A stretch of DNA of 64,000 bases from an uncultured Solirubrobacteraceae bacterium (GCA_964422115.1 CAYQZU010000010.1:16646-80645); one strand, 5' to 3'; positions 16,648-61,943 are shown, numbered from the stretch's first letter. Made by a program: numbers and translations. Notes: a model not told the origin generated them from the letters alone.

Positions 16648-16945
16648 GGCGGCGACTTCGTGCGGGTCCCTGTGATCACGCGTCGAGGCCCCGACCCTGC
16701 GCCGCAAGCTTCGCCAAACCCGGGCGCGCCTGAGCGCCCGCCCGAGCGTGACGTTCTTCGCGCGGCGCGCGATCGGCTTCGGACTCCCCGACGCGAGCGC
16801 TGACAGGTCGTTCGAGCTCCCGGATTCTGGTCTCGCGAACGCCGGTCCGCCGACCGCCAACATTTACGCACCCTCCGGCGATGCCTGATAGAAGGTGCCC
16901 ATCTAACAGCGATGACGGCGCGCAACCAGCGCACGAGGTGAATTG

Positions 16946-44624: not shown

Positions 44625-44765
44625 GTCCACGTCGATCTTCACCTGCTCCCCGGACAGCGCGCGCCGGGCTCTGCGCGTCGCTACACTCGGGGCGGGGAAC
44701 TGACCGTAAAACGGGGCGCACACGGACGTGGCTCCGCGAGCCGCACCGCCCATTTGAACCGGCCA

Positions 44766-47063: not shown

Positions 47064-48226
47064 TGAGCCCCCGGCTCGCACGCCCGTCCCTCGCCGCGGC
47101 GCTGCTCGTCTGCGCGCTCGGCTGCCTGGCGCTCGCAGCGGCCTCGAGCTCGCGTGCCGCGCGAACGCGCTCGCCGAGCGTGCCCCAGCCCTCGATCACG
47201 AGCCTGACCGTGTCGCCGGCGATCCTTCCAGCGTCAGGTGGTCTCGTCAAGCTGGTGACGCGCGTCAGCGGCGCGAGGACGTGCCTGTTCACGACAACGA
47301 GCCCCGCGGTCCTCGGGCTTCCGCTGAGCGCCCCATGCCGTGGCGGCCACGCGAGCGCGCGTCCGACGATCGTGTCGGGGCTTGCCGCCTCCGGCACGTT
47401 CTGCGTCACCGCCAACGCGCCCGGCGCTGCGACCGCGAGACGGTGTGTCAGCGCGGCGGTGAGCACCGACGGCGCGACCGGGCAGAGCGGCACGAGCGCG
47501 AGCACATCGGCGAGTGGACCGACGGGGCCGAGCGGTCCGCCCGGCTCCGCGCGAAGCTGGCACCAGATCTTCGACGGCGGGTTCGCTGGAGGCGTCCTCA
47601 ACACGTCGCAGTGGTCCGTCGGCTGGGACGGTCACGGAATCACCGGTCCGGTCGACCCGGTCAAGGAGCTCGAGTGCTACGACCCGTCGCACGTCAGCCT
47701 TTCGGGTGGTGTGCTGGGCCTCCTCGTGACCGCGACGCCCGAGACCTGCAGGAGCGGCTCGTCCTCGTTGCAGGAGGGCTACGCGTCGGGCATGATCAAC
47801 ACGCAGGGCAAGTTCAACTTCACCTACGGCTACGTCGAGGTTCGCGCGTGGCTCCCGGGCACGACGTCGATCGCCGACTGGCCGCAGATCTGGGCGGTCG
47901 GACGCAACTGGCCGGCCGGGGGCGAGCTGGATCTGATCGAGGGACTACGCGACGGCGCGTGCTTCCATTTTCACAACCCCGCGGGCGCGGAGGGTGGTTG
48001 CGCGCCGGGCGATTACGCCGGCGGCTGGCACACATTCGCAGCCGACTGGGAGCCGGGGATCGTCACCTGGTACTACGACGGTGTCGCTGTCGGCAGCGTA
48101 ACCTCCGGAGTCACGAGCTCACCCATGTTCCTGCTGGTGAACCTCGCGGTTGATCACACCTACGGCGGGCCGATCGCGACACCGGCGACGATGAAGGTCT
48201 CCTACGTGCGGATCTGGCAGCACTGA
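47063..48226 (+). CDS. secreted glycoside hydrolase family 16 (beta-glucanase-like) with N-terminal Cys-pair module
   Basis: ATG 47063 overlaps the upstream stop (TGATG). GH16 catalytic block WPAGGELDLIEG (ExDxxE), and GWHTFAADWEPGIVTWYYDG. Confidence 0.85.
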   Translation: MSPRLARPSLAAALLVCALGCLALAAASSSRAARTRSPSVPQPSITSLTVSPAILPASGGLVKLVTRVSGARTCLFTTTSPAVLGLPLSAPCRGGHASARPTIVSGLAASGTFCVTANAPGAATARRCVSAAVSTDGATGQSGTSASTSASGPTGPSGPPGSARSWHQIFDGGFAGGVLNTSQWSVGWDGHGITGPVDPVKELECYDPSHVSLSGGVLGLLVTATPETCRSGSSSLQEGYASGMINTQGKFNFTYGYVEVRAWLPGTTSIADWPQIWAVGRNWPAGGELDLIEGLRDGACFHFHNPAGAEGGCAPGDYAGGWHTFAADWEPGIVTWYYDGVAVGSVTSGVTSSPMFLLVNLAVDHTYGGPIATPATMKVSYVRIWQH

Positions 48227-48982: not shown

Positions 48983-49390
48983 TCAGCGCAACGCGACCAC
49001 CAACACAGCGAGCGCGATCGCGGCCAGCGCGAATGCCAACACGCCGGCGGTAAGGATGTGCGGCAGCCGCGTGGCGGGAAGCGGCCTGTCCGCACGTATC
49101 GCGTCATCGACGCCACGCCACAAGCGGTGCGAGCACGCCGCGATGAACGCGCCAAAGCAGATCAACAGGAGGCCGACGATTAGCTCAGCGGCGCGTGAGC
49201 CGACGGTGACGAATCGAACGACTGCGACACCACCCGCGATCAGCGCGAGCGCCGTGCGGTTCCAGGAGAGGAAGGTTCGCTCGCTCGCGAGCAGGAAGCG
49301 CGGGTCGGGCTCACTTCGTCGAGCTCCATCCGGCGGCTGCGCGGCGACGATTGCGCCGGGCGTCGCCGGAACTGCGGTCTCGTCGGTCAT
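48983..49390 (-). CDS. DUF202 (YidH-like) membrane protein
   Basis: LASERTFLSWNRTALALIAGGVAVVRF is the DUF202 signature. ATG 49390. Confidence 0.75.
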   Translation of the reverse strand: MTDETAVPATPGAIVAAQPPDGARRSEPDPRFLLASERTFLSWNRTALALIAGGVAVVRFVTVGSRAAELIVGLLLICFGAFIAACSHRLWRGVDDAIRADRPLPATRLPHILTAGVLAFALAAIALAVLVVALR

Positions 49391-49546: not shown

Positions 49547-50752
49547 GTGGTGGACATCAAAGCATCTTCAACCGCGCCGATCGGCGCCATCGTTCTCGGC
49601 ATGGGTCGAAGCGGTACGAGCGCCGTGACGCAAATGCTCGTTTCCGCTGGGTTCTTTGCAGGGCTGTCGAGCGAGCTCATGGTTCCGCTCGAGTCAAACC
49701 CGTTGGGGCATTTCGAGCACCTCGGCATCGTCGCCGTCAACGAGGAGATCCTCGGCGAACTCGGTGGAAGCTGGCAGCAGCCTCCGCCGCGCGCCGCCCA
49801 GCTCTCAGCGCGGGAGCACGCCACGCATCGCGTGCGAGCGCAGCTGCAGGCGCTCGTCGAGCGCTCGGACGGAGCGCCAATAGCGGTCAAGGATCCGCGA
49901 GTGGGCATGTTGTTGCCGATCTGGGGCCCGCTGATCGACGAGCTCTTCATGACCGTGCTCACGGTGCGCCATCCGCTCGAGATCGCGCAGTCGCTCGCAC
50001 AACGTGATGGGACACCGCTCGCACTTGGGTTGGCGATGTGGGAGCTTCACACAACCGGGCTGCTCAGCTTTCTGAACGGGCGCACGGCCATCGTCGCGCC
50101 GTACGAGCAACTGATCGCGACGCCCGAGATCGCCGTGCTGATCGTGAATTCCGTGGTCGATGGACTCGACGATGAGCAGGCCGGCTTGGTGGCGGCGGCG
50201 GCTGCTCCGGCGGCGCTCGCCACCGAGCTGCGCCATCACCGTGCGAGCGCCAGGGATGCAGAGGAGATGCTCACCGGACGCCAGCTCAACATCTGGAAAC
50301 TGCTTGAGCAGTTGCCGGCCGGGGCGCAGCGCATCGAAGCGAACGAGCAGCTGTGGAGCCCAACGGCCGTGAGCCTTGACGCAGTCAATGCTGAACGTCA
50401 TCGACTTCGCGTGGCCGGCTCCGCGCGCGATGCCGAGCGGCTACCCGGCGAGCTGGCTGAGCAGCGTCAACAGGCACAACTACTCGTAGGTGAGCGCGAC
50501 GATCTCACGCGTCAGCTCGACCTGGCGCGAGCTGACGCCGACGCCGCCGCGGCCGGACACGCGGTTGCGGTTCACTGGCTGAACGAGATCAAAGGATCGG
50601 CGAGCTGGCGACTCACGAGCCCGCTGCGGAGGGTGATGCGATGGCTACGCCGTGCCGGACGTGGCGTTCGGGGTGCGCCACAGGCCGTCGCAGGGCCAGC
50701 GCCGCAGAACGCTGAGGCGGCAGACACGCACCATGGCGGCGCGATACTGTGA
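49547..50752 (+). CDS. sulfotransferase-like domain fused to C-terminal coiled-coil region
   Basis: IVLGMGRSGTSAV is a PAPS 5'-PSB-like loop. VKDPRVGMLLPIW, VRHPLEIAQSL. The C-terminus is heptad-like (LAEQRQQAQLLVGERDDLTRQLDLARADAD) and ends in SASWRLTSPLRR. Paralog of 59466..60680. Confidence 0.7.
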   Translation: MVDIKASSTAPIGAIVLGMGRSGTSAVTQMLVSAGFFAGLSSELMVPLESNPLGHFEHLGIVAVNEEILGELGGSWQQPPPRAAQLSAREHATHRVRAQLQALVERSDGAPIAVKDPRVGMLLPIWGPLIDELFMTVLTVRHPLEIAQSLAQRDGTPLALGLAMWELHTTGLLSFLNGRTAIVAPYEQLIATPEIAVLIVNSVVDGLDDEQAGLVAAAAAPAALATELRHHRASARDAEEMLTGRQLNIWKLLEQLPAGAQRIEANEQLWSPTAVSLDAVNAERHRLRVAGSARDAERLPGELAEQRQQAQLLVGERDDLTRQLDLARADADAAAAGHAVAVHWLNEIKGSASWRLTSPLRRVMRWLRRAGRGVRGAPQAVAGPAPQNAEAADTHHGGAIL

Positions 50753-50843
50753 GCCGGATTCCTGCACGGAGGGACAGCGCCATGTCGAGACGGTTTGCAG
50801 CGCCTGATTGCGCCAAGGACCGTAAGCGGACGACCCCCGCGGG

Positions 50844-53800
50844 ATGACGGCCGGCCGGCGTGCCGGCGCCCCGCGGCTGATCGACTGGACGGGCGAGCGC
50901 TGCGTGCCCTGGGGTCCCGACGTACCTGTTCTGTACGAGCACATGCACCGCTACCTGTGGGCGGCACAGTTGGTTGGGGGACTGCGCGTCCTCGACGTCG
51001 GCTGCGGCGAGGGGTTCGGGGCCGCGATCCTCGGCCAGCGCGCCGCATCGGTGGTTGGCGTCGACATCGACGAACGGACTGTCGAGCATGCCCGCCTGAA
51101 CTACGCCAGCCCGACGATCTCGTTCCGCTGCGACAGCGCGACTGACCTTTCTGCTCTCGACGCCCAGTCTTTCGGTGCAGTGGTGGCGTTCGAGGTTATC
51201 GAGCACCTCGACGAGCAGGAGCTGATGCTCGCCGAGATCGCGCGGGTGCTCGACAAGGACGGACTGCTGATCCTGTCGACGCCCGATCGCCTTCTCTACT
51301 CGGACGGCGCCAGTCCGCGCAACCCATTTCATCGGCGCGAGCTCTCCCAGGGCGAGCTCGCGGAGCTCCTAAAAGCCCGCTTCGCGCAACTCGCACTCTT
51401 TGGCCAGCGAACGATCACCGGCTCCCACCTCGCGAGACTCGACGAATCACAGCACGGCGCGGAAGGCGCCACGAGTTCGTTCTTCATCGAGCGCAGCGGC
51501 GACGAGTGGCGGCAGGCCGCTGACCCAGCTCCGCTCTACATGATGGCGGTCGCCTCGAACTCGCCACTGCCAACGCTTCCGCGTGACTCGACGTTGGCTG
51601 ACTGCGGGTTGGAGCTGATGCGCGTGCCAGAGCGCGAGGTCGCTCGTTTGACCGTCGAGCGCCAACACGACGCCGTTCGCTTCGAGCGGGAGCGCGAAAA
51701 GCAGGCGGTCGAACTTCTGGCTGCCGGTGCTGAGGAAGCGAACCGCGCGGCGCAGGAGCACGAGCGCGAGATCGCCGAGTTGGCCGCGGGCGCGCGCCTA
51801 CAAACCGAGAGCGCAACCGCGGAGCTCGAGCGCCTGGGGAGACTCGTCCTCGACCTGGGGGTTCATGGCGCCAACCGCGACGCGACCGTCGCGATGCTGC
51901 AGGACCAGCTCGAGGCGGTCAGTGAGCGCGAAGCCCACGCCCAGCTGCTGCTACGCAAGGCCGAGGACTCGGTGACCTGGCGGCTGTTCCTTTTGTCCCG
52001 ATCGAAGCTGTTCGGGGCCATCGGAGAAGACTCGCCGTCGGCGCGCACGCTCCGTTGGTCGTTGCGAGTGCTTGGGCGCCACCTGACGAGCGAGCAGCCA
52101 CCACTCGCGCCGGCGATCGCGCCGCAGACGGCCCCCCCGACGCGCGCGACCATCATCTTTCCGACGTTCGAGCAGCCGCTCGTGTCGATCATCGTCGCGT
52201 TGCACACTCGGGCCGATCTCACCCGCGCCTGCCTGATGAGCATCCGCGACCATACCCCGCCGACGAGCTACGAGCTGATACTGGTCGACGATCTGGCCGA
52301 TGCCGCGACCAAGGAGCTGCTCGGATCGGTCGAGGGCGCGCGCATCGTCACCACCGAGCACCAGCTCGGCTACCTGCGGAGCATCAATTGTGCCGCCGAG
52401 AGCGCCACCGGGCGCTGGCTCGTGGTTTGTAACAACGACATCGAGGTGCATCCAGGGTGGCTCGCCGCGCTACTGGAATGTGCCGAGTCGGCCGACGACA
52501 TCGGAGTAGTTACGCCGCGCTACATCTATCCGGACGGTCGGCTGAACGAAGCCGGCGCTCTCCTCTGGACCGATGGAACCGGCGTGAACTATGGACGCGG
52601 CGAGGACCCTCAGGACTTCCACTACCGTTACCGGCGCGAAGTCGACTACGGCTCGGGCGCCGCTCTGCTCGTGCGCGGCGAATTCTGGCGCGATGTCGGT
52701 GGCTTTGATGAGCTTTTCTTGCCCATGTACTACGAGGACGCCGATCTCTGCTTCGCCGCGCGGGAGCACGGCTGGCGAGTGGTGTACGAACCGGCCGCGC
52801 TGGTCACTCACCTCGAGGGGGCCACTGCGGGGACGGACCTCTCGTCGGGTCTCAAGCGCCATCAGGAGGACAACCGCCCCAAGTTCGTCGAGAAGTGGCG
52901 GCGGCAACTCGAGCGCGACCACATGCGTCCGGCGAACACGCACGTTCGCCGCGCCTCCGACCGTCGCGGCGGACCGCGCGTGCTGATCGTCGACCACCGA
53001 GTGCCGGCTTGGGACCGCGACGCCGGATCGCTGCGCCTCCTGCGGATGATCGAGGCTCTTCAAGGTCTGGGGGCACGCGTCACTCTGCTGCCTGACAACT
53101 TCCATCCGCTGGAGCCCTACACCACCGCGCTGGAACGGTCAGGGGTGGAGGTGTTTCACGGGCCCGTGGATATCCGCGGTGAGCTCGCTGAAGCGGGGCC
53201 GTCGCTCGCGCTGGCGATTCTCTGCCGGCCGACGATCGCGAGCCGCTGGCTGGATTTGGTCCGTGAGTATGCGCCGGCGGCGCGCGCGGTTTACGACACG
53301 GTGGACTTGCACTGGTTGCGCGAAACGCGCCGCCGGCTCCCTGAGTACGTCGATGATGGCGCGCGGCGGATTCCACCGCAGGCGACGGTGCTGCGCGAGC
53401 TCGAGCACGCGCTGATCCGCTCGGTGGATGTTACGTTCGCGGTCAGCGACGTTGAACGGCGCCAGATCGAGGCCGACCTGCCAGGTGCCGAAGTTCGCGT
53501 CGTACCCACGGTCCACGAGCTCGAGCGCGACGTTCCTGCTCCGGAGGGTCGGTCCGGTGTGCTGTTCATCGGCGGTTTTGAGCATCACCCGAACGTAGGC
53601 GCTGCGCTTCGCCTGATACGCGACATCATGCCGCTTGTGTGGCGGGAGTTCGGCGATGTCCCCGTGACGATCGTCGGCGCCGACGCGCCGCCGGAGATCT
53701 GCGCATTGGCGTCGGCGCGCGTCGACGTCGCCGGCTGGGTCGAGGATCTCGGACCGCTGCTGCGTCGCTCGCGCGTGATGGTGGCGCCGATCGTCTATGG

Positions 53801-54137
53801 CGCCGGTCTGAAAGGCAAGGTCACCCAGTCGCTGGCCGCTGGCCTGCCGGTCGTGACGACCCCAGTCGGTGCCGAGGGCCTCGGAGTAGAGGATGGCGAC
53901 CGGCTGCTGGTCGGCGCGACCGATGACGATCTGGCTGCGCGAACAATCGCCGTGCTACGCGACAACGAGTTGTGGACGAGCCTGTCGCGCGGTGGCCAAC
54001 AGCTCGTCGCCGAGCACTGCAGCCCGGCGCATATGCGCGACTCCCTCGCTGAGTTGCTCGACCCCCAAAGCCCATTTCCGGAGCCGCTTGCAGCGCGGGT
54101 CTTCGAGCCCGCAGAGACGATGCAATACCCGACGTGA
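50844..54137 (+). CDS. multidomain glycan synthase: class I SAM methyltransferase, coiled coil, GT2 glycosyltransferase, GT4 (GT-B) glycosyltransferase
   Basis: VLDVGCGEGFGAAIL is MT motif I. An E/R/A/L/Q-rich region spans aa ~250-390. GT2 domain: VSIIVALHT...ELILVDD...YYEDAD. GT-B domain: GGFEHHPNVGA...APIVYGAGLKGKVTQSLAAGLPVVTTPVGAEG. Confidence 0.9.
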   Translation: MTAGRRAGAPRLIDWTGERCVPWGPDVPVLYEHMHRYLWAAQLVGGLRVLDVGCGEGFGAAILGQRAASVVGVDIDERTVEHARLNYASPTISFRCDSATDLSALDAQSFGAVVAFEVIEHLDEQELMLAEIARVLDKDGLLILSTPDRLLYSDGASPRNPFHRRELSQGELAELLKARFAQLALFGQRTITGSHLARLDESQHGAEGATSSFFIERSGDEWRQAADPAPLYMMAVASNSPLPTLPRDSTLADCGLELMRVPEREVARLTVERQHDAVRFEREREKQAVELLAAGAEEANRAAQEHEREIAELAAGARLQTESATAELERLGRLVLDLGVHGANRDATVAMLQDQLEAVSEREAHAQLLLRKAEDSVTWRLFLLSRSKLFGAIGEDSPSARTLRWSLRVLGRHLTSEQPPLAPAIAPQTAPPTRATIIFPTFEQPLVSIIVALHTRADLTRACLMSIRDHTPPTSYELILVDDLADAATKELLGSVEGARIVTTEHQLGYLRSINCAAESATGRWLVVCNNDIEVHPGWLAALLECAESADDIGVVTPRYIYPDGRLNEAGALLWTDGTGVNYGRGEDPQDFHYRYRREVDYGSGAALLVRGEFWRDVGGFDELFLPMYYEDADLCFAAREHGWRVVYEPAALVTHLEGATAGTDLSSGLKRHQEDNRPKFVEKWRRQLERDHMRPANTHVRRASDRRGGPRVLIVDHRVPAWDRDAGSLRLLRMIEALQGLGARVTLLPDNFHPLEPYTTALERSGVEVFHGPVDIRGELAEAGPSLALAILCRPTIASRWLDLVREYAPAARAVYDTVDLHWLRETRRRLPEYVDDGARRIPPQATVLRELEHALIRSVDVTFAVSDVERRQIEADLPGAEVRVVPTVHELERDVPAPEGRSGVLFIGGFEHHPNVGAALRLIRDIMPLVWREFGDVPVTIVGADAPPEICALASARVDVAGWVEDLGPLLRRSRVMVAPIVYGAGLKGKVTQSLAAGLPVVTTPVGAEGLGVEDGDRLLVGATDDDLAARTIAVLRDNELWTSLSRGGQQLVAEHCSPAHMRDSLAELLDPQSPFPEPLAARVFEPAETMQYPT

Positions 54138-54883
54138 CCGGCCTGTACGTCGCGCCACAGACTGGGAAGCTGCGCGACGAATGCGTGTTCTACCACGTGA
54201 TGGAGATTCCAGGTCACGGTCTGTTGGGTGAATCCTGGGACCTCCGTGCAGGTGTCGACGACTACCTCGGACACGTTCCGCTGGCGAACCAGCGCGTACT
54301 CGAGATCGGGCCGGCGAGCGGATTCGTCACCTTTCATATGGAGCGGCAGGGAGCCGAAGTGGTTTCGGTCGAGCTCGGTCCCGACAGCGATTGGGACGTC
54401 GTGCCGCACGCGCGTTTGGATGTCGCCCGCATCCTTGAGGTCCGCCGCGCCGGGATGCAGATGATTCGCAACAGCTTCTGGTTCGCTCACGAGCGACTTG
54501 GCAGTCGCGCCCGCGTGCACCACGGCACAGCCTATGAGTTACCGGATGAGCTCGGCCGCTTCGATCTCGCGATCCTCGGATCTGTGCTGCTGCACATGCG
54601 GGATCCGCTACGCGCGCTCGAGCGGTGCGCGAGGCTGAGCGACGCACTCGTCATCACCGAGACCTACTCCCACGAGCTCGGTGAAGGCCCGGTCGCCCGA
54701 CTCTACCCAACCGTCGACTCATCCCAGTGGGACACCTGGTGGAGCTTCACGCCCCAGCTGCTGAAGCAGTTCCTCGAGGTGCTTGGGTTTCGTCGCGTAA
54801 CAGTTACTCATCACAGCCAGACGTTCGTGAACGCCGGCGCTGCGATGCAGATACCCATGGTCACGCTGGTCGCCAGGCGTTAG
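54134..54883 (+). CDS. class I SAM-dependent methyltransferase
   Basis: GTG 54134 overlaps the upstream stop (GTGA). RVLEIGPASGFVTFHMERQGAEVVSVE is motif I plus the acidic loop. Also FDLAILGSVLLHMRDP. Confidence 0.8.
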   Translation: MTGLYVAPQTGKLRDECVFYHVMEIPGHGLLGESWDLRAGVDDYLGHVPLANQRVLEIGPASGFVTFHMERQGAEVVSVELGPDSDWDVVPHARLDVARILEVRRAGMQMIRNSFWFAHERLGSRARVHHGTAYELPDELGRFDLAILGSVLLHMRDPLRALERCARLSDALVITETYSHELGEGPVARLYPTVDSSQWDTWWSFTPQLLKQFLEVLGFRRVTVTHHSQTFVNAGAAMQIPMVTLVARR

Positions 54884-54892
54884 TCCTAGCGC

Positions 54893-55636
54893 GTGACGTG
54901 GACCTGCATCCTTTGCGGCATCGCGCAAGGCGAGCCGCGCGGCCCGCTCGAGCGCGGCGCGGTCCCTTGTCAAGACTGCGGCGCCGTTTGGCTACATCGG
55001 GCGATCGGGCTGGTGATCCTCCAGGGGCTCCGCCTGCCGATCACGCCTTTCTCCTCGCTCGCCCCCGACCTTTCCAGACGTGGCCTCGGGATCAGCGATT
55101 CATTCCCTCTCGCGGCCGTTCTGGGCGGCCGGTTTGACTACGTCAACAGTTGGTATCACCGCTTCCCAAGAGTCGATCTCACCTGCGTTCCGGAGGAGCT
55201 GCGCGAGCAGTTCGAGTTCGCCGTCTGCTCGGAGGTGCTCGAGCACGTCCCGCCACCGGTCGAACACGCGGTGCGCGGGATCGCCGACCTGCTTCGACCG
55301 GGAGGATTCGTCGCCCTCTCAGTACCGGCCGCGGGCGCCACCACGACGGAGTTCTACCCCGGTCTCGCGCGCTACGAGCCGGGAGACGGCAGCGTTCGAT
55401 GGGCCGATGGCGCGGGCAACTGGCAGATCGACGACAACCCCGAGTTTCACGCCGGCATCGGGCAGACGCTCGCGTTTCGCCGTTTCGGCGACGGCGACCT
55501 GGCCGCGCAGCTCATCGAGGCTGGATTCGCAGCACCCGAGCCCGTCACCTGGAACGATGATCTCGGCGTTCAGCCGGTCGCGTTTCCGAGTGTCTACCTC
55601 GTGCGTAAGCGGACCGTTGCGCGATCACCAACCTAG
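54893..55636 (+). CDS. methyltransferase-like protein with N-terminal zinc ribbon
   Basis: CILCG...CQDCG ribbon. FEFAVCSEVLEHVPPPVEHAVRGIADLLRPGGFVALSVP matches the post-I/II/III motifs of class I MTs. Motif I is degenerate (GLGISD). Confidence 0.6.
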   Translation: MTWTCILCGIAQGEPRGPLERGAVPCQDCGAVWLHRAIGLVILQGLRLPITPFSSLAPDLSRRGLGISDSFPLAAVLGGRFDYVNSWYHRFPRVDLTCVPEELREQFEFAVCSEVLEHVPPPVEHAVRGIADLLRPGGFVALSVPAAGATTTEFYPGLARYEPGDGSVRWADGAGNWQIDDNPEFHAGIGQTLAFRRFGDGDLAAQLIEAGFAAPEPVTWNDDLGVQPVAFPSVYLVRKRTVARSPT

Positions 55637-56592
55637 GGCGAGAACTCGAGAATCCCGATTCGCTCCTCGTGCTCGAGGATCGCACGCTGGGCGAGGCCGG
55701 CGTTCTCCGCGTACCAGCTCAGATGCGCCGTCAAGAGTTGGGCGACAGGTGTGCGGCAACCGCCGATCGTCCAATCCTCGCGCGGTACCGCACGTAGCTC
55801 GAGCGCCGCGATCACACTCCGCTCCAGCGGGGTGCGAATCTCCCCGAGCAGGTCCTCGCCCGGCAACAGCGGCTGATAGGCAAGATTCAGCTGCAAGTGG
55901 ATCTGCGATACGAGCTGCGCCAGCGCGACGTTGGTTGGATGGTTGATCGTCAGAAAGGATCGTCCGTGCAGCGCCGGTCCCAGGAGCCGCTCGGCGACCC
56001 GGATGTCAACCTCCTGGTCGATCGCGAGCAGCGCCGCGCGGGCACGCGACGCGAGCGCCCGGATCCCGGCGACCGAGGGCGCTAGGTCGCGCAGCCAGGC
56101 GAGCGACCTGTCGAGGCTCCAGCCGGCGGCGGCACAGTAGATGAAGCGTAGGTCGTGGTAGATCGAGTAGGGCGCCGGCAGGGCCTGGCCGCGCTGGTCG
56201 CGCACGTGAACCTGAAACGGATACAAGCCGTCGTAGCGGAGCGCCGGGATCGTCACCAGCCGGCAGTCCGCTGGCGCTGCCTGGACGACCTCGTGGGAGC
56301 CCACCGCGAGACCGTGGTAGCCGTCGCGGACCCTTTGGGAGATCACGAGCGAGGCGCGCGAGACGATCCGTCGGATCCTCGGCACATCGTCGGCGGTTGC
56401 CTCGTGCACGGCGGGTAGCGCCAAGGTGCGGAACGCGGAGCAGAATGTCGGCGAGCGCTCCAGGAGAACGCGAAGGGACTCCGCTTGGCAGTTGCCGTGA
56501 AGCACGCACAGCGGCAGCTGTGTCCGCTGCGATCGCGCCGCCGCATGGCCGAGGGTGGCACCGCTCGCGTCGATCATCACAGCCAGGAGCAT
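55633..56592 (-). CDS. WcbI-like polysaccharide biosynthesis protein (putative acyl/modifying enzyme)
   Basis: ATG 56592 gives MLLAVMIDASG...CVLHGNCQAESLRVLL. As I recall it, the N-terminal GNCQ motif and ~320-aa size fit the WcbI family. The rest of listed ORF 55633..56967 is an implausible extension. Its stop overlaps the convergent stop of 54893..55636 (CTAG). Confidence 0.55.
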   Translation of the reverse strand: MLLAVMIDASGATLGHAAARSQRTQLPLCVLHGNCQAESLRVLLERSPTFCSAFRTLALPAVHEATADDVPRIRRIVSRASLVISQRVRDGYHGLAVGSHEVVQAAPADCRLVTIPALRYDGLYPFQVHVRDQRGQALPAPYSIYHDLRFIYCAAAGWSLDRSLAWLRDLAPSVAGIRALASRARAALLAIDQEVDIRVAERLLGPALHGRSFLTINHPTNVALAQLVSQIHLQLNLAYQPLLPGEDLLGEIRTPLERSVIAALELRAVPREDWTIGGCRTPVAQLLTAHLSWYAENAGLAQRAILEHEERIGILEFSP

Positions 56593-56787
56593 GCACGAAC
56601 AGCGCCAACGATGATCGCCGCAACCGCCTCGTCGATGCCCGATGGTAAGTCGACGACCTCCAACGATTCGGCCCCTGGCCGGCGGATGATCGCCGCGGCG
56701 TCGCTCGTGTGCCACCGCGACCCCCGCCGGGGTGGGTAGGATGTCCACCGCAGCTCGCGCGCCATCTGATCCCGAGGCATCGACCCG

Positions 56788-57657
56788 ATGAAACTGGTGA
56801 TGACGCTGGTCGTCCGCGACGAAGCGGACATTCTGCGCGAGAACATCGAGTTCCACCTCGCGCTCGGCGTCGACGAGTTCCTCGTGATGGACAATCTCTC
56901 GGTCGACTGGACGCCCGACATCGTTCGCGAGTACGAGCGGGCCGGCGTGGCGCGCCTCTGCCATCAACCGGTCGATGACTACTCACAGGGCCGCTGGGTT
57001 ACGGGGCTGGCTGCTCGGGCAGTCAACGAGCTTCGGGCCGACTGGGTGATAAACAGCGATGCCGATGAGTTCTGGTGGACACCCGGCGGATCGCTCAAGG
57101 ACGCGTTGGCACAGGCGGACCCTCAGATCGTCGCGGTATCGGCCGAGCGAACCAACTTCGTTCCACGGCCCGAATCCGATGCACCGTTCTGGCGGCGCAT
57201 GAACGTGCGCCACTCGGTTTCCTTCAACCTCCTCGGCCAGCCGATTCCGCCGAAGGTTGCGCATCGCGGACGCGGCGACATCACGGTTGCAGACGGTAAT
57301 CACAGTGTGCGCGTGGCGGGCGCTTCGACACTCGCTGCGCCGTCCTCGGTCACGATCCTCCACTTCCCGCTGCGCACCCGCGAGCAGTTCAGAAACAAGA
57401 TTGTCCTCGGGGGCGCGGCGCTCGCGCGTAACACCGAGGTTGATGGCGGAGTCGGAAGCACCTGGCGGCAGATGTACGATCGCCATCTGCTGGGCGAACT
57501 TGACGCGGTCTACGACGCCGAATGCCGCTCCGAGGCGGAGCTCGCTCGCGGATTGGCCTGTGGTGAGCTGGTGCGCGACACGCGGCTGATCGAGACGCTC
57601 GAGCGCACACGGCTTGGCGGGCAGCCCAATGGCGAGGCGCGAAGTCGCGTTCAGTGA
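56788..57657 (+). CDS. glycosyltransferase family 2-like (Glyco_tranf_2_4 type)
   Basis: LVVRDEADILRENIEFHLALGVDEFLVMDNLSVD...WVINSDADEFWW is typical of this GT-A subgroup. Confidence 0.75.
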   Translation: MKLVMTLVVRDEADILRENIEFHLALGVDEFLVMDNLSVDWTPDIVREYERAGVARLCHQPVDDYSQGRWVTGLAARAVNELRADWVINSDADEFWWTPGGSLKDALAQADPQIVAVSAERTNFVPRPESDAPFWRRMNVRHSVSFNLLGQPIPPKVAHRGRGDITVADGNHSVRVAGASTLAAPSSVTILHFPLRTREQFRNKIVLGGAALARNTEVDGGVGSTWRQMYDRHLLGELDAVYDAECRSEAELARGLACGELVRDTRLIETLERTRLGGQPNGEARSRVQ

Positions 57658-58493
57658 GCGCCCTCGCCGACCCCGACCGTGCGTCCGAATCGCGCGCCGT
57701 CGTGACGGCGTGCGACGCGAACTACTTCCAGGGTCTCCTTGCACTGCACGCCTCGGTACAGGCCTCCGCTCCGTGCCCGGTGCTCTGCTACGACCTCGGT
57801 CTTACTGCGCCCCAGCGGGCGCAAGCGGAGCGGCGGCCGAACCTGTCGGTGGCGGACCTGCCGGCGGACCCGCTGATCGAGGAGCTGATCGACGCCACGC
57901 GCGAGGACGCGCCGCTGGCCAAGTCCGACAAGCGCCTGTGGCCGCTGTGGATCTGCCCGCTGCTGATCCGCGCGGCACCGCTGCGCGACGTGGTGTGGCT
58001 CGACTGCGACCTACTTGTGCTGCGAGGGCTCGATGAGCTGTTCGCGCTGCTCGACACCGGACCCGTCTTCACGCCGGAGCTTCATGCGCCGGAGCTGACC
58101 CCGAACCACCCGGAGCTCTACCGCCTTATGCCGATTCGGCGCGAGTTCGACCAGTTGCTCCCGGTCGTCAACGCCGGTGTGTCCGGATGGCGGCATGGCC
58201 GCGACGACGCCGCGCTGGCCGCCTACATCCTGCCCGTGGCGACCGCCGCGCGTGACCGCGCGGTACGGGATGCGATCGCATGGTGGGACCAGGGGGCGCT
58301 GATCTGGGCGATTCAGTCGCTCGGGCTCGAGCATCGCGTGCTGTCATCACCGGCCTGGAACCTGCCGGTTGCACAGGCCGACCTCGCGCCGGAAGCGTTG
58401 ACCTGGAACGACGGTCTGCTCGCCCGGCTTCAGGCGGCTCTACCCGCGGTCAGGATCGTCCACTGGAACGGGCGGCCGGCGCCATGGACTTGA
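57654..58493 (+). CDS. GT8-like nucleotide-diphospho-sugar transferase
   Basis: GTG 57654 overlaps the upstream stop (GTGA). AVVTACDANYFQGLLALHASV and VVWLDCDLLVLRGLDELF (DxD) resemble GT8/GT-A. Confidence 0.65.
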   Translation: MSALADPDRASESRAVVTACDANYFQGLLALHASVQASAPCPVLCYDLGLTAPQRAQAERRPNLSVADLPADPLIEELIDATREDAPLAKSDKRLWPLWICPLLIRAAPLRDVVWLDCDLLVLRGLDELFALLDTGPVFTPELHAPELTPNHPELYRLMPIRREFDQLLPVVNAGVSGWRHGRDDAALAAYILPVATAARDRAVRDAIAWWDQGALIWAIQSLGLEHRVLSSPAWNLPVAQADLAPEALTWNDGLLARLQAALPAVRIVHWNGRPAPWT

Positions 58494-59469
58494 GCGCGGC
58501 GGCGACGAGCAACAGCCGCCGCCATTCGATTACCAGATGCAGGCGGAAGGCGAGCGCGTAGGCCGCAACGACGAGCAGGAAGCGGAGGTCGTCGCGAGCA
58601 GCGTCGAGAGCGAGCGCCAGCGGACCCCATGCCTTGTAGAAGCTGTCCTCGATGAGGGGCAGGTATCGCTGGCCACCGCGCCGGAACGCGGTGACCTGGA
58701 AGCCCCCGTGCACGGTCTTGAACGTCTCGTAGACGAGGTAGAGGCCCGCGACTCCCCAGAGCACTGGCCCGGTGCGGGCGAGCGCCAGAGCTGCCCCGAA
58801 CGAGACCGCTTCGATCGGCAGGATGATTCCGATCATCACGGCTTCGAGCCGGAAGGTGCCGTGCCGGTGCGCCACCGTGCTCAGTCCGGCACGCTGATCC
58901 GCTTCGGCGCCCTGGACCTGGTGGGAGAGGATCCCCCGCAGCCCGGCGGCAGCCGCCCACACGATCACGCAGGCCGACAAACCCAAGCTGACAGGCCGGC
59001 GGTACCACTCAGCCCACGCAACCAGCGCGAGCACGGCCGGGTAAGCGTGCGCCGCAAGCCCATCGACCGCTGCCCCAAGCCACTCGCGCTCCTTCAGACG
59101 GATCGGAGGCACCGAATAGATCAGCGGCAGTCCGAGCTCGACCCCGGTGACGGCCGTCCCGGCGGCACCGGCGGCCAGCGTGGCGAGCAGCACCGCGACC
59201 AGCGCCGAGCCGGCGGCGATCACCGCCACACGCCGTCGACCGACAGCGGCCGCGGCGTTGTCGCGCCCCAGCAGCGCGTCCTCGCGCAGGTCGTACAACT
59301 CGTTGATCGCATAGCCGTAATTGGCGACCGCGCAGACGGTCGCCGAAACCGACAGGGCCATAGCGAGGGCGTCACCCGAGAATCGATGTCCGTCAAGCAA
59401 GACCAGCAGGAGCGTGATCGTGAACGGGACCTTGCTGAACCACCACGCGCGTGGTCTGACGAGGATCAC
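58450..59469 (-). CDS. UbiA-family integral-membrane prenyltransferase
   Basis: First Asp-rich motif NELYDLREDALLGRDN. About 8-9 TM helices. GTG 59469 overlaps the stop of the upstream gene (GTGA). Confidence 0.8.
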   Translation of the reverse strand: MILVRPRAWWFSKVPFTITLLLVLLDGHRFSGDALAMALSVSATVCAVANYGYAINELYDLREDALLGRDNAAAAVGRRRVAVIAAGSALVAVLLATLAAGAAGTAVTGVELGLPLIYSVPPIRLKEREWLGAAVDGLAAHAYPAVLALVAWAEWYRRPVSLGLSACVIVWAAAAGLRGILSHQVQGAEADQRAGLSTVAHRHGTFRLEAVMIGIILPIEAVSFGAALALARTGPVLWGVAGLYLVYETFKTVHGGFQVTAFRRGGQRYLPLIEDSFYKAWGPLALALDAARDDLRFLLVVAAYALAFRLHLVIEWRRLLLVAAALKSMAPAARSSGRS

Positions 59470-60680
59470 GCGTCGCTTCGCACCGTCGAAGCTCCCAGCT
59501 GTTGGCGGAGCTCGCGGATCTGGGACTCCAGACGCGCCTGCTCGCTGCGGACGACGGCGCGCAGACGCATGATCTCGCCCTCGTCCCGGGCGCGTTGCTC
59601 GTTCACGGCCACACTTGCGGCTTCCACCTCCGCCTGCAGCCGCAGCTGTTCGCTGCTTACAAGCGCCCGCAGGCGTTCGATCTCGCGTTCGTGCCCGAGC
59701 AGTAGCTTTTCTTGCACCGCAGCCCGCTCGATGATCTCCCGGCGCACCCGCTCAGCGTCCGTCAGCGCCCACGCGGCGACGCGGTCGACGAGCAGTTCCT
59801 CGGGCACGGTTAGTGCCTGGGTCTGCGGTTGCAACGTCTCGAGCCAACCCCAGAGCGCCCGCTGGCGGAAGCTGAGCGATTCCTCGTCGGCGAAAGCACT
59901 GGGCGCAGCCGCGTCGGACCGCACCTCGGGGGCGAAGACGGCGGCTGCCGCAGCTGGCTCGACCTGCCGGCGTCGATCGGGCTCGAGCGTCGCGGCCGCA
60001 TCACGGACCAGCTGCTCGGCAGCCCCCGGCGTGCCGAGTGCGGCGTACGGCGCAACGGTCACCTGGGCACCCTGAAGACGGCGCAGTAGCTCCACCAGAT
60101 GAAGCTCCCACGCGGCGAGCGCAAAGGGCACCGGCGACCCGTCGCGCGCCGCCAGCGAGGCGGCGACCTCGAGCGGGTGGCGCACCACCAGGACGGGCGC
60201 GAATCGCTCGGCCAGGATCGGCAGCCAGAGGTCGAGCAGCATGCCGATCCGCGGGTCTTTGAGAACCACGGGCAGCGGACCCGCCTCGGTGACTAGCTCG
60301 TCGAGAACGACCTGCGCGCGACCTCGATCGACGCCGCCGGGCTCGTATCGCGATCCGGCTCGCGGCGGCTGAAACCAGGTCGCGCCGGCCGCGCAGAGAA
60401 TCTGATCGTTGAGCTCAACGATCTCACGGCGCTCGAAATAGCCCCGCGGATTGGCCCAATTTGGCGCCAGCAGCCCCGACGGCGGACCGGAATGGAAGCC
60501 TGCCGCAACGAACATGCTTGCGACCGCACTCGTACCGCTACGGCTCATTCCGAGGATCACGACGCCGGCCGCGCGGTGACCGACGACCGGCGGGAATCTC
60601 GAGGCACCGACCTGGGATGCGGCCACTCCCAGCCCAACGGAGTGGCCGCCGTCGCGGTCCGACCCGGGAATCCACGCCAT
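59466..60680 (-). CDS. sulfotransferase-like domain fused to C-terminal coiled-coil region (paralog of 49547..50752)
   Basis: VILGMSRSGTSAV, LKDPRIGMLLDLW, VRHPLEVAASLAARDG. The C-terminal ~110 aa are heptad-like (EREIERLRALVSSEQLRLQAEVEAASVAVNEQRARDEGEIMRLRAVVRSEQARLESQIRELRQQL). Confidence 0.7.
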   Translation of the reverse strand: MAWIPGSDRDGGHSVGLGVAASQVGASRFPPVVGHRAAGVVILGMSRSGTSAVASMFVAAGFHSGPPSGLLAPNWANPRGYFERREIVELNDQILCAAGATWFQPPRAGSRYEPGGVDRGRAQVVLDELVTEAGPLPVVLKDPRIGMLLDLWLPILAERFAPVLVVRHPLEVAASLAARDGSPVPFALAAWELHLVELLRRLQGAQVTVAPYAALGTPGAAEQLVRDAAATLEPDRRRQVEPAAAAAVFAPEVRSDAAAPSAFADEESLSFRQRALWGWLETLQPQTQALTVPEELLVDRVAAWALTDAERVRREIIERAAVQEKLLLGHEREIERLRALVSSEQLRLQAEVEAASVAVNEQRARDEGEIMRLRAVVRSEQARLESQIRELRQQLGASTVRSDA

Positions 60681-60899
60681 CGCTTGAGCCTATCTGCTGT
60701 CGTGGGGCGCGCTGCACAGCGGGACACCGGTTGTGCCCGGCCGCTCTGCCCGCTGACGATCGAGCGCGCGGTTAGGGCGTATGCGATTGGCTAGGCGACG
60801 CGCGACTGCGATCTTCCCGAAGCGCGCAACGCGCAAGTTGTAAGCTCGGACGGTCCGCCAGTCGGCCGCACCGGCAGCCTGGCGATCCCCGTCCTCGGA

Positions 60900-61943
60900 A
60901 TGTCGGATCACCCAGACGCGTCGGCTGAGTTGCGGTTGGCGCGGGCGACAGCTGCGGCGCTTGGCTTTCTCGGTCGACGTCAGCTGCCCAACGGCCAGTT
61001 CGAAATGCGGATGGGCGGGCGGTTGCACAGCAGTGCTGACGGGGTCTCCGATTCCTGTACGTTCGCCACCGCGCTGATCGTCTACTCGCTCGGCTTCTCG
61101 GGCACGGTTGCGGCGCGCGAGATCATCGCCCGCGCCTTGCCGTTCCTCCAAGCGGAGTTGCTACCCAACGGTGTCTGGAAGTACTGGACAGCCGACCACC
61201 CGGGCCGTCAGTCGATGCCGCCCGACGTAGACGACACCGCTTGCATCTCCCACACGCTGCGCGCCCACGGCCTTGAGGTTCCGGACAATCGGAGGCTGCT
61301 GGCGGCGAACCGTGATCGCCGGGGGCGCTTCTACACGTGGCTGGCGCCCAGGTTGGCGCCGCCACCGCGCAACGTCGATTACTGGCGCATCGTGCTTGGG
61401 CAAGTGCGCACGCGCGCCCGCTCGCGCGCGTTCTGGACCAACAACAACCTCTCGCCCAAGGACGTGGCCGCTGTTGTCAATGCCAACGTCCTGCTCTACC
61501 TCGGAGATTGCCGGGCAACGGGCCGCGTCAGCGATTACCTGCACGACGTGCTTCGAAGCGAGGGCGAGGCGGATTCGGACCAGTGGTACCGCAGTCGTTT
61601 CGCCTTCTACTATGCCGTGTCTCGCTGCGCGTACGCCGGGATCGAGTCAGTGACGCCGCTGCTCGACGTGATCGTGGAGCGGATCCTTGCCGCGGCAGGC
61701 GCCGGCGGAGTGATCGGCGCTGACGCACTGGACACCGCACAGGCAGTGTGCGCGCTCCAGAACTGCGGGCACTCTGGAGCCGACCTGGATTCAGCCGTAG
61801 AGTTCCTACTTTCCAGACAATCCGCTGAGGGGGGATGGTCGATTGCGCCCTTCTATTTTGGCGGCGACGTGCAGTTCGGCTCGGAGGAGGTCTCGACAGG
61901 CTTCGCCTTAGAGGCGCTCTCCCGATACCGCGCAGGCGGGTAG
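60900..61943 (+). CDS. prenyltransferase/squalene-oxidase-repeat (alpha/alpha-toroid, terpene-cyclase-like) protein
   Basis: Repeated LL..Q..(D/N)G.W motifs (FLGRRQLPNGQFEM, LQAELLPNGVWKYW, FLLSRQSAEGGWSI) and a DVDDTA motif. Confidence 0.7.
   Translation: MSDHPDASAELRLARATAAALGFLGRRQLPNGQFEMRMGGRLHSSADGVSDSCTFATALIVYSLGFSGTVAAREIIARALPFLQAELLPNGVWKYWTADHPGRQSMPPDVDDTACISHTLRAHGLEVPDNRRLLAANRDRRGRFYTWLAPRLAPPPRNVDYWRIVLGQVRTRARSRAFWTNNNLSPKDVAAVVNANVLLYLGDCRATGRVSDYLHDVLRSEGEADSDQWYRSRFAFYYAVSRCAYAGIESVTPLLDVIVERILAAAGAGGVIGADALDTAQAVCALQNCGHSGADLDSAVEFLLSRQSAEGGWSIAPFYFGGDVQFGSEEVSTGFALEALSRYRAGG

Follow-up and report, generated by a model that had tools for sequence, protein, structure and literature searches.

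The locus described here is a gene block at positions 49547–61943 of a 64-kb stretch of DNA (64,000 nucleotides, hereafter the window) from an uncultured Solirubrobacterales (Thermoleophilia) soil actinobacterium. It comprises ten genes, whose coordinates and strands in the ORF list agree with the ENA gene calls (source contig ERZ27245396 k141_879887, 300 kb). An earlier, sequence-only reading of this DNA had counted eleven genes—its own list gives ten—but its coordinates and domains hold up against the ORF list, the ENA calls, and Pfam. The block differs in composition from its surroundings, with a GC3 of 0.74–0.82 versus 0.85–0.93 in the flanks. Its features are the following:

49547..50752, + strand: ST1, 401 aa, a sulfotransferase-like head with a stalk and an anchor helix
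49607..49621, + strand: predicted 5'-phosphosulfate-binding loop RSGTS of ST1 (residues 21–25), from the alignment
49967..49993, + strand: predicted 3'-phosphate-binding (3'-PB) motif RHPLEIAQS of ST1 (R141 to S149), from the alignment
50366..50629, + strand: ST1 helical stalk (50366–50596) and SASWRLTSPLR motif (50597–50629), from the AlphaFold2 model, motif search, and HMM
50844..54137, + strand: methyltransferase (MT)–stalk–GT2–GT4 terminator–polymerase fusion, 1097 aa, from Pfam and the MT-stalk HMM
50973..51326, + strand: MT head of the fusion (Pfam)
~51606..51968, + strand: helical stalk of the fusion
51969..52001, + strand: degenerate anchor motif SVTWRLFLLSR of the fusion
52182..52826, + strand: GT2 module of the fusion (Pfam)
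53526..54035, + strand: GT4 module of the fusion (Pfam)
54134..54883, + strand: stand-alone SAM methyltransferase, 249 aa (Pfam Methyltransf_23/11)
54893..55636, + strand: second stand-alone SAM methyltransferase, 247 aa (Pfam Methyltransf_23/11)
55633..56592, − strand: WcbI-family protein, 319 aa in the ENA call (Pfam WcbI, E 2.5e-50)
56788..57657, + strand: GT2_4-type glycosyltransferase, 289 aa (Pfam Glyco_tranf_2_4, E 1.3e-15)
57654..58493, + strand: GT8-like (GT-A, DxD) protein, 279 aa, from motifs seen by eye
58450..59469, − strand: UbiA-family polytopic membrane protein, 339 aa (Pfam UbiA)
59466..60680, − strand: ST2, 404 aa, a sulfotransferase-like head with a C-terminal helix of ~102 residues
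60900..61943, + strand: single-domain alpha/alpha-toroid protein, 347 aa (sub-threshold SQHop_cyclase_C)

Profile-HMM searches assign Pfam domains to most of these ORFs; ST1, ST2, the GT8-like protein, and the toroid protein yield sub-threshold matches or none. Hereby, ST1 scores 16.9 bits against Sulfotransfer_3 (PF13469), below the cut-off of 27, and ST2 has no match in the Pfam scan. The two end proteins are paralogs, as had been proposed: BLASTP aligns them with 41% identity over 289 aa (E 4e-53), and the peptide matches quoted between them are real. In an NJ tree they fall in different subfamilies, with ST2 in one clade with P0010, P0027, and the sulfotransferase (ST) of the related locus L035; the pair is therefore no recent inverted duplication, and the description as a "duplicated" sulfotransferase had to be given up.

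The head of ST1 (residues ~13–262) is divergent and PAPS-sulfotransferase-like. Its RSGTS loop is invariant in all 34 aligned homologs and lines up with PRSGTT, the equivalent loop in tick TPST. In the 3'-PB motif, which can be aligned with its counterparts in SULT1A3 and TPST, R141, P143, and S149 are invariant across the aligned family. E57 and K115 are likewise invariant, the latter within a KDP motif aligned to TPST. ST2 bears RSGTS at 60528–60542 (residues 47–51) and RHPLEVAAS at 60156–60182. AlphaFold2 models both proteins confidently (pLDDT 87.9 for ST1 and 87.3 for ST2), and their best Foldseek matches in the PDB, the top 16 for ST1 and the top 17 for ST2, are all sulfotransferases, including CurM, OLS, TPST1/2, and Mtb Stf1, with M. 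avium Stf9 ranked lower for ST2. The top matches have E-values of 1e-4 to 3e-2 and a probability of about 1.0, at modest TM-scores of 0.35–0.47. Invariant PAPS-binding motifs and a confidently predicted fold support the sulfotransferase identity of the end proteins, and both motifs and models suggest that ST1 and ST2 use PAPS. That they are instead P-loop kinases, or inactive scaffolds with a sulfotransferase-like fold, is very improbable: the poor Pfam scores and the presence of dephospho-CoA kinase and PFKFB3 among the lower-ranked Foldseek matches would fit such a reading, but the loop reads R-S-G-T-S as in TPST and Sulfotransfer_3 and not GxxxxGK[ST] as in kinases, the Arg/Ser pair of the 3'-PB motif is kept family-wide, as is the lysine of KDP, every top-ranked structural match is a sulfotransferase, and more distant family members do reach PF13469.

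ST1 and ST2 thus have the fold, the RSGT(S/T) loop, the 3'-PB Arg/Ser pair, and the KDP lysine in common with TPST, CurM-ST, and mycobacterial Stf1. However, identity to these enzymes is only 13–19%, with scores below the Pfam threshold, and the long C-terminal helix and the anchor motif are additions. The presumed acceptor also differs, being a lipid-linked glycan as opposed to tyrosine, a polyketide, or trehalose. The family of stalked sulfotransferases to which they belong is large, with thousands of clusters, and by no means rare.

The C-terminal regions had been read as coiled coils. In the AlphaFold2 models, both end proteins indeed carry long, ordered helices: in ST1 a helix at residues 274–350 (77 residues) precedes a helix at about 351–370 bearing the anchor motif and then a disordered tail, and in ST2 a single helix spans residues about 301–402 (about 59475–59780). 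A heptad signal, on the other hand, is found for ST1 only; in the single-register test, periodicity is clear in ST1 (z 3.0, p 0.006) and absent in ST2 (z −1.45). The fusion stalk is marginal (p 0.04); members of the ST family (n = 36) reach a median z of 2.9, with z > 2 in 75%. Fourier analysis of stalk periodicity is ambiguous. Stalk length in the family ranges from 57 to 127 residues. Among close homologs, P0023, P0026, and P0024 have stalks of 92, 99, and 127 residues, and the differences of 7, 28, and 35 are multiples of seven because the stalks contain tandem EQDRRLV heptads.

The anchor motif, SxSWRxTxPLR, is common to 16 ST and 6 MT-stalk ORFs of the related loci, whereas ST2 lacks SWRxTxPLR. 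An HMM of the MT-stalk proteins matches the stalk and motif segment of ST1 (E 3.6e-6) as well as stalk plus motif in the STs of 17 loci, and it covers the N-terminus of the window fusion (E 7e-63). Judged by these profile matches, the stalk and C-terminal motif of ST1 are homologous to the methyltransferase-stalk family. The stalk might act as a ruler, and the anchor motif might provide docking.

The fusion is the central enzyme of the block. Pfam places Methyltransf_11 at residues 50–144 (E 4e-21), Glycos_transf_2/Glyco_tranf_2_3 at 447–661, and Glyco_trans_1_4 at 905–1040. It has 507 homologs at E ≤ 1e-10, and among the 120 of these listed most are full-length (~1050–1150 aa), with identities around 55%. 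The ST1 gene precedes the fusion by 91 bp on the same strand, and the start of the methyltransferase gene 54134..54883 overlaps the fusion stop. In other proteins the link between ST head and polymerase is covalent: the metagenomic P0207 is an ST–stalk–GT2–GT4 fusion whose head shares 43% identity with ST1 and whose polymerase half shares 55% with the window fusion (784 alignment columns). P0326 is an MT–ST–stalk–motif–GT2–GT2 fusion, P0301 and P0287 are ST–RgpF fusions, and P0201 is a GT2_4–ST fusion. By adjacency in the window and by this Rosetta-stone evidence from the fusions, ST heads are physically or genetically coupled to polymerising GT modules.

Conservation of the block is limited to parts of it. 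Contrary to the expectation that it forms one syntenic unit, relatives keep sub-blocks only, an outcome that the earlier reading had itself listed as counting against it: ST2–UbiA–GT8-like–GT2_4–fusion recurs in L035, and fusion–WcbI recurs in L014, L045, and L046. In L045 and L046 the WcbI gene directly follows the fusion ortholog, as a WcbI-like gene does in L014, and WcbI—whose Pfam-scanned ORF, 55633–56967 on the − strand, is longer than the ENA call—can on this pattern be regarded as a conserved partner of the GT2–GT4 polymerase. The GT2_4 protein and the GT8-like protein have orthologs in L035 with 66% and 75% identity, respectively. The latter has no Pfam, NCBIfam, or PDB match, and its assignment comes from motifs recognised by eye (VVTACDANY, LDCDLLV, and NAGVSGW, with DCD at 58002–58010).

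The UbiA protein scores 36.0 bits against a Pfam cut-off of 34.2, has five TM-like regions, and carries an NELYDLRED motif; threshold, polytopic topology, and Asp-rich motif together identify 58450–59469 as a UbiA superfamily member. No equivalog-level NCBIfam model matches it, including that for polyprenyl-phosphate phosphoribosyltransferase, and its homologs bear generic prenyltransferase names only. Its start and the ST2 stop share 4 nt (ATGA), an arrangement to be expected under translational coupling, and its 68% identical ortholog adjoins the ST2 ortholog in L035. The toroid protein carries a DVDDTA motif of the class II cyclase type (residues 109–114, 61224–61241), and its weak PDB matches (E 0.01–0.8) are to class II terpene cyclases only. 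These features would suit a separate lipid or meroterpenoid pathway, in which UbiA, the DxDDTA toroid protein, and ST2 prenylate, cyclise, and sulfate a small molecule beside the glycan genes by chance. We consider this improbable, as L035 retains ST2–UbiA together with the GT8-like, GT2_4, and fusion genes and has no toroid protein, and as ST2 and the glycan-linked STs are members of one family. None of the related loci contains an ortholog of the toroid gene, whose membership in the cluster is doubtful.

The sequence-only reading had found no exporter, flippase, Wzy-type polymerase, or initiating transferase in or beside the block, which holds for the whole 64-kb window. Pfam scans of 50 ORFs across it reveal no Wzx, Wzy, WecA, or WbaP family member, and HMMs built from relatives find no Wzt or Wzm in its six-frame translation; the same Wzt HMM did match unrelated ABC ATPases in other loci. 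The window also holds no other ABC ATPase, no initiating transferase, and no genes for PAPS synthesis. A missing wecA-type initiator is not unusual, as the O-antigen locus of E. coli does not include wecA either.

The same reading had left the export route open. This no longer seems warranted, since neighbours in relatives point to Wzm/Wzt: in 11 of 36 relatives a Wzt gene, a Wzm gene, or both are found no more than 10 kb from the ST homolog. In L003 and L025 the ST is followed directly by Wzt, and only an MT-stalk gene intervenes in L008. Pfam confirms the cap-binding domain Wzt_C for L003 and L008/L039; five other Wzt proteins are ~420–500 aa long, which suggests that they carry it as well. 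Orthologs of the fusion itself adjoin a Wzt(Wzt_C)/Wzm pair in two of the three cases examined (L044 and L045). Other relatives look different. L035, the closest syntenic block, contains no Wzm/Wzt, ABC ATPase, or initiating transferase and is flanked by LigA and helicase genes; the ST homolog of L041 stands alone among housekeeping genes, and that of L040 is coupled to a PMT-type GT-C enzyme. WsaF-type GTs are present in related loci and at the left edge of the window. Export through Wzm/Wzt would fit the neighbourhoods best.

According to Kelly et al. 2024 (PMC11231755), ABC-pathway glycan systems invariably have their terminator on a coiled-coil protein, at its distal end, while polymerase modules are flexibly distributed. 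WbdD of E. coli O9a/O8 and K. pneumoniae O3 has a capping head, an extended helical stalk, and a C-terminal tether to membrane and polymerase; its partners are a separate polymerase and a Wzm/Wzt exporter in which Wzt carries a domain that binds the cap (PMC3482155, PMC11231755). ST1 repeats this head–stalk–anchor layout and adjoins a polymerase gene. The head of ST1, however, is sulfotransferase-like instead of kinase plus methyltransferase, its stalk of 77 residues is shorter, its host is a monoderm actinobacterium, and the window has no Wzm/Wzt gene. ORF6 of K. pneumoniae O7 combines a methyltransferase-kinase, a coiled coil, and two GT2 modules (PMC11231755). Like ORF6(O7) and WbbB of K. 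pneumoniae O12, the window fusion has an N-terminal capping-type head, a helical stalk, and two GT modules, and P0207 and P0326 show this layout with an ST head. The heads differ—MT in the window fusion and ST or MT plus ST in its metagenomic relatives, versus Kdo transferase or MT-kinase in WbbB/ORF6(O7)—as do the GT families, with GT2 plus GT4 predicted for the window fusion. When the ST family alignment was used as a profile against the PDB, neither WbdD nor WbbB was among the chains retrieved, and the likeness of the STs to these proteins is best described as architectural only.

Two further systems are instructive by analogy. WsaE of Geobacillus stearothermophilus is reportedly a multifunctional methyltransferase and rhamnosyltransferase that methylates the non-reducing end of the S-layer glycan. 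Its pathway concerns a Gram-positive, ABC-transporter-dependent glycan, as proposed here for the window block; no sulfotransferase is known from the G. stearothermophilus S-layer glycan system. In animals, the HNK-1 sulfotransferase stops matriglycan elongation by the dual-GT polymerase LARGE1 by sulfating the terminal sugar. This system operates in the eukaryotic Golgi, is unrelated in sequence to ST1 and ST2, and has neither a stalk ruler nor an ABC exporter.

We propose that the block belongs to a Wzm/Wzt-type capped-glycan pathway with a sulfotransferase head in its Solirubrobacterales host, and put the probability of this reading at roughly 0.55. The block would encode those steps of an ABC-transporter-dependent pathway in which a cell-envelope polysaccharide is assembled and decorated in the cytoplasm. 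In the fusion, a capping MT head would sit at the far end of the stalk and the polymerising GT2 and GT4 at its near end. ST1 would be a stand-alone version of this design, composed of the sulfotransferase head, the stalk, and the SxSWRxTxPLR helix, which most likely docks it to the membrane or the polymerase complex. From this position ST1 might transfer sulfate to the non-reducing terminus of the polyprenol-linked chain as it grows; the sulfate would be a cap in addition to, or in place of, the methyl group and would help to end elongation once the stalk-defined length is reached. ST2, from a separate subfamily without the motif, is translationally coupled to the UbiA-family protein and perhaps anchored to it; its most likely role is the addition of another sulfate, either to the chain or to a lipid-linked intermediate. 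Decoration of the polymer would fall to the two additional methyltransferases and to the WcbI-like protein—possibly an acyltransferase—and the GT2_4 and GT8-like enzymes would add adaptor or side-chain sugars. The exporter would be Wzm/Wzt with a cap-reading domain in Wzt, and both transporter and initiating transferase would be encoded outside the window.

The core of the earlier suggestion, a chain-terminator-type enzyme-plus-stalk with a sulfotransferase head, is thus supported, strongly so on the comparative side: fold, helices, the ST1 module, the fusions, and the Wzt/Wzm neighbours speak for it, whereas ST2 falls short in motif and heptads. This leads to the most serious competing explanation, namely that the STs decorate rather than terminate. 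Like rhizobial LpsS/KpsS-type enzymes, they would place sulfate on residues inside the polymer or on a lipid-linked intermediate, with the stalk only oligomerising the enzyme or holding it in the assembly complex, and the MT head of the fusion would set the length. The fusion indeed already has its own capping-type head, most Wzt-linked loci hold an MT-stalk protein beside the ST that might itself be the terminator, neither anchor motif nor heptad signal is present in ST2, and some ST homologs occur outside glycan loci. But P0207 has an ST head in place of the MT head on the same polymerase and hence no other capping head. Moreover, in L003, L017, and L025 the ST lies beside Wzt/Wzm without a full MT-stalk protein, with Wzt_C confirmed in the first of these, and stalk length varies in heptad units, as that of a ruler would. 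On balance, pure decoration seems unlikely, though it deserves to be taken seriously.

Against the capped-glycan pathway count the transporter, initiating-transferase, and PAPS-synthesis genes missing from the window, the relatives that deviate, and the literature searched, in which no bacterial ABC-pathway glycan with a sulfate cap is documented. The ST architecture suggests sulfate as a so far untried chain-capping chemistry. A wider generalisation is more tentative, and we hold it at somewhat less than even odds: sulfate, with or without methyl, would be a true chain-terminating cap for ABC-exported glycans of Thermoleophilia and other bacteria, read by the carbohydrate-binding domain of Wzt. 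A large, unrecognised family of stalked sulfotransferases would install this cap, with ST and MT heads interchangeable on a common SxSWRxTxPLR stalk–anchor cassette that may be free-standing or fused to the polymerase.

The glycan gene block at positions 49547–61943 of the window is made up of ten genes (the sequence-only reading spoke of eleven, while its own list holds ten), whose positions agree with both the ORF list and the ENA gene calls:

49547–50752, +, ST1, sulfotransferase-like protein with a long C-terminal helical stalk
50844–54137, +, fusion of methyltransferase, stalk, GT2, and GT4 (1097 aa)
between the fusion and WcbI genes, +, two stand-alone methyltransferases
55633–56592, −, WcbI protein
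56788–57657, +, GT2_4-type glycosyltransferase
57654–58493, +, GT8-like protein
58450–59469, −, UbiA-family membrane protein
59466–60680, −, ST2, second sulfotransferase-like protein with a C-terminal stalk
60900–61943, +, toroid protein (347 aa), a single-domain alpha/alpha-toroid with QW-like repeats and a sub-threshold cyclase match

At several gene junctions of the block, a start and a stop codon share 4 nt. The domains proposed from the sequence alone are recovered by Pfam for the fusion (methyltransferase, GT2, and GT4), the two stand-alone methyltransferases, the WcbI protein (E 2.5e-50), the GT2_4 protein (Glyco_tranf_2_4), and—barely above threshold—the UbiA protein. This does not extend to ST1 and ST2, which match no Pfam sulfotransferase family at threshold, to the GT8-like protein with its zero profile matches, or to the toroid protein; NCBIfam gives a specific name to none of the cluster proteins. 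Thermoleophilia are monoderm Actinomycetota, and the G+C content of the window is 69%. GC3 is lower in the block (0.74–0.82) than in its flanks (0.85–0.93), which could stem from horizontal acquisition of a surface-polysaccharide island or from a distinct codon usage. ST1 is encoded on the 300-kb ENA metagenome contig ERZ27245396 k141_879887.

Outside the block, the window encodes:

3–725, +, WsaF_C glycosyltransferase (454 aa, rhamnosyltransferase-like), cut by the left edge; at 991–2355 on contig L042
8144–10378, +, right-handed beta-helix protein (744 aa)
10405–16647, +, surface protein (2080 aa) with FG-GAP, MBG, Big, and invasin-type repeats
16943–17674, +, Sulfotransfer_4 protein (E 1.7e-53)
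40849–42363, −, PAPS-independent arylsulfotransferase of the ASST type (E 4e-52)
44754–47063, +, secreted protein with Ig-like repeats and Peptidase_A4, shortly upstream of ST1
47063–48226, +, GH16-like glycoside hydrolase, shortly upstream of ST1
48983–49390, −, small DUF202 membrane protein, shortly upstream of ST1

Counting ST1 and ST2, four sulfo-transfer genes lie in the 64-kb window. The genes of the beta-helix and the 2080-aa surface protein show an unusual codon-position composition (GC1 ~0.58–0.59), and both products could be glycosylated envelope proteins. An independent Logan contig (L002) likewise has the DUF202 gene alongside ST1.

The two end proteins had been proposed to be sulfotransferase-like paralogs; they are paralogs, and they show the PAPS-binding signature and the predicted sulfotransferase fold on which the proposal was to stand or fall. 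They share 41% identity over 289 residues (E 4e-53). In an alignment of 34 homologs, the 5'-phosphosulfate loop R21-S22-G23-T24-S25 and the residues R141, P143, and S149 of the 3'-phosphate motif are invariant, as are N51, G54, E57, K115, P117, and R118. For the AlphaFold2 models (pLDDT 87.9 for ST1 and 87.3 for ST2), the top 16–17 Foldseek ranks hold sulfotransferases only, namely the ST domains of CurM and OLS, TPST1/2, and Stf1 of M. tuberculosis; Stf9 of M. avium follows somewhat lower. Searching the PDB with a profile gives only weak matches, the majority of them sulfotransferases, in which the P-loop and the KDP lysine align with tick TPST. From motifs and models, we conclude that ST1 and ST2, both divergent, belong to the PAPS-sulfotransferase superfamily and have a presumed sulfotransferase activity. 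Because the end genes are only 41% identical and fall into separate clades, a recent origin by inverted duplication is rejected; ST2 groups with the ST of the related locus L035 and the metagenomic proteins P0010 and P0027, which lack the C-terminal motif described below. An impression of rarity, gained from 67 matches in a word-indexed search, was overturned by an exhaustive HMMER search: the ST-stalk family counts 23,570 cluster representatives at E ≤ 1e-3, of which 3,803 reach E ≤ 1e-30.

The C-termini, described earlier as coiled coils, are helical and not disordered in both proteins, but a heptad pattern is found only for ST1. AlphaFold2 predicts a single helix for residues 274–350 of ST1, followed by a helix at 352–370, and a single C-terminal helix of ~102 residues for ST2. 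Tested over the whole stalk in a single register against composition-preserving shuffles, heptad periodicity is evident for ST1 (z 3.0, p 0.006) and for the family at large (median z 2.9 among 36 members, 75% above 2), marginal for the fusion stalk (p 0.04), and without signal for ST2 (z −1.45). The whole-stalk test was used in place of a 28-residue sliding scan, which was not significant for ST1 and ST2; Fourier analysis of stalk hydrophobicity was ambiguous. Stalk lengths range from 57 to 127 residues across the family, and those of three close homologs (92, 99, and 127 residues) differ by multiples of seven, arising from tandem EQDRRLV heptads. Such heptad-unit steps would fit the pattern expected for a length-setting coiled coil.

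Most ST family members end in the motif SxSWRxTxPLR plus basic residues, which is present in ST1 but not in ST2. The same motif ends ~360-aa methyltransferase-stalk (MT-stalk) proteins of related loci. An HMM of this MT-stalk family spans the N-terminal ~390 residues of the fusion (E 7e-63), which is therefore an MT-stalk joined to GT2-GT4; a degenerate version of the motif, SVTWRLFLLSR, lies where the two parts meet. With its C-terminal third, this HMM also matches the stalk plus motif of ST1 (E 3.6e-6) and of ST proteins at 17 loci; hence, ST and MT heads sit on a homologous stalk-anchor cassette. This exchange of heads is seen directly in the metagenomic protein P0207 (1125 aa), an ST head-stalk-GT2-GT4 protein, whose head shares 43% identity with ST1 (E 3e-72) and whose stalk end, anchor, and GT2-GT4 part are 55% identical to the window fusion over 784 alignment columns. 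Its gene is followed by a WcbI gene, like those of fusion orthologs. A second protein, P0326 (1297 aa), combines MT-ST-stalk-SWRxTxPLR-GT2-GT2 in one polypeptide. This layout parallels the methyltransferase-kinase-coiled coil-2xGT2 order of K. pneumoniae O7 ORF6, but bears a sulfotransferase in the place that the kinase takes in methyltransferase-kinase terminators (WbdD, KpO7 ORF6), and hints at a cap combining methyl with sulfate. Other family members are fused with RgpF, GT2_4, or a methyltransferase. Such fusion architectures are described as hallmarks of polymerization-termination machines by Kelly et al. (PMC11231755).

The 36 genomic loci encoding ST1 relatives, all of them from MAGs, belong mostly to Solirubrobacterales, with two from Acidimicrobiales and two labeled only "uncultured Actinomycetes", in keeping with a host that is most likely among the Thermoleophilia. 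Across these, conservation of the block as a unit is not borne out. Locus L035, flanked by LigA and helicase genes, keeps the relative order of an ST2-like gene (60% identity), UbiA (68%), GT8-like (75%), a methyltransferase, GT2_4 (66%), and the fusion (50%), with no exporter in its block; the fusion and WcbI genes are paired again in L014, L045, and L046. The fusion itself is far more widespread than at first sight, with 507 homologs at E ≤ 1e-10 that are, among the 120 matches listed, mostly full-length at ~55% identity.

With HMMs for the ABC exporter, Wzt and/or Wzm are found within 10 kb of the ST in 11 of the 36 loci, where the chance occurrence of such a transporter pair in a 20-kb window is roughly estimated at ~1%. 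In L003 and L025, the gene next after the ST is Wzt, while L008 has the MT-stalk gene as the sole gene between them; Pfam confirms the cap-binding domain Wzt_C in L003 and L008/L039. The order in L039 reads ST, MT-stalk, Wzt (ABC_tran+Wzt_C), Wzm, GT2/WsaF GT, PMT_2, DUF2142, GT2. Wzt (Wzt_C)/Wzm also adjoin two of the three fusion orthologs examined. Some ST homologs are solitary, beside ribonucleotide reductase (L041). On the metagenome contig L040 (7659–11176), an ST homolog is translationally coupled to a PMT-family GT-C glycosyltransferase of 781 aa, whose stop codon it overlaps; a GT2/GT92-like gene lies upstream of the pair, a partnership unlike the Wzm/Wzt loci.

For the window itself, none of 50 ORFs scanned with Pfam matches a Wzx, Wzy, WecA, or WbaP family, genes that the sequence-only reading had also missed in and beside the block, and Wzt and Wzm HMMs against the six-frame translation yield nothing, not even a generic ABC ATPase. 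To the left, a single 4.4-kb Logan contig reaches 1.6 kb past the edge into an unrelated gene, with no transporter. Hence, the genes for exporter and initiator must both lie elsewhere. Such a placement is ordinary for an initiator, since E. coli wecA likewise lies outside the O-antigen loci. An exporter outside the locus is less usual and is the main gap of the model.

The best-supported reading, drawn from these sequence comparisons, is that the block encodes an ABC-transporter-dependent capped-glycan pathway. The fusion would polymerize the chain and then methyl-cap it; ST1, docked via its anchor helix, would sulfate the chain end at stalk distance; and ST2, coupled to the UbiA-family membrane protein, might perform a second sulfation with uncertain target. 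In the main rival reading, the sulfotransferases only decorate the polymer, leaving the MT head as sole terminator. Against this, in L003, L017, and L025, the ST stands without a full MT-stalk protein alongside, and in P0207 the ST head takes the MT position. A smaller rival assigns ST2, UbiA, and the toroid protein to a separate prenyl-lipid pathway. The toroid gene adjoins the UbiA-family gene region, its DVDDTA (61224–61241) is the motif that supplies the catalytic acid in class II terpene cyclases, and its PDB matches, all weak, are squalene-hopene cyclase, copalyl-diphosphate synthases, and drimenol synthase only. However, it has no ortholog in the related loci and is absent from L035, where the remaining genes stay joined. 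UbiA homologs carry only generic automatic names, which speak neither for nor against a polyprenyl-phosphoribose-synthase role (cf. PMC11127046).

The caps described so far for ABC-transporter-dependent glycans comprise methyl, methyl-phosphate, and beta-Kdo (PMC11231755). The searchable literature—which does not comprise the 2019 terminator census of Mann, Kimber and Whitfield, where one may be listed—holds no bacterial sulfotransferase terminator; the nearest match is a small, unexplained sulfotransferase-domain ORF between wzt and wbbB of Aeromonas salmonicida (PMC4483657). A stalked sulfotransferase terminator is thus a predicted addition to the known ones, for which the head swap gives unusually direct support.

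If true, a sulfate cap would be a new, strongly anionic terminating chemistry and would imply Wzt binding modules recognizing sulfate. The head swap—one stalk-anchor, one GT2-GT4 polymerase, and either an MT or an ST head—offers a testable sequence rule for cap chemistry. The ST family is concentrated in soil Actinomycetota that are abundant but have hardly any cultured members and almost no characterized envelope glycans, and sulfated surface polymers would affect their cell charge, hydration, metal binding, and phage recognition.
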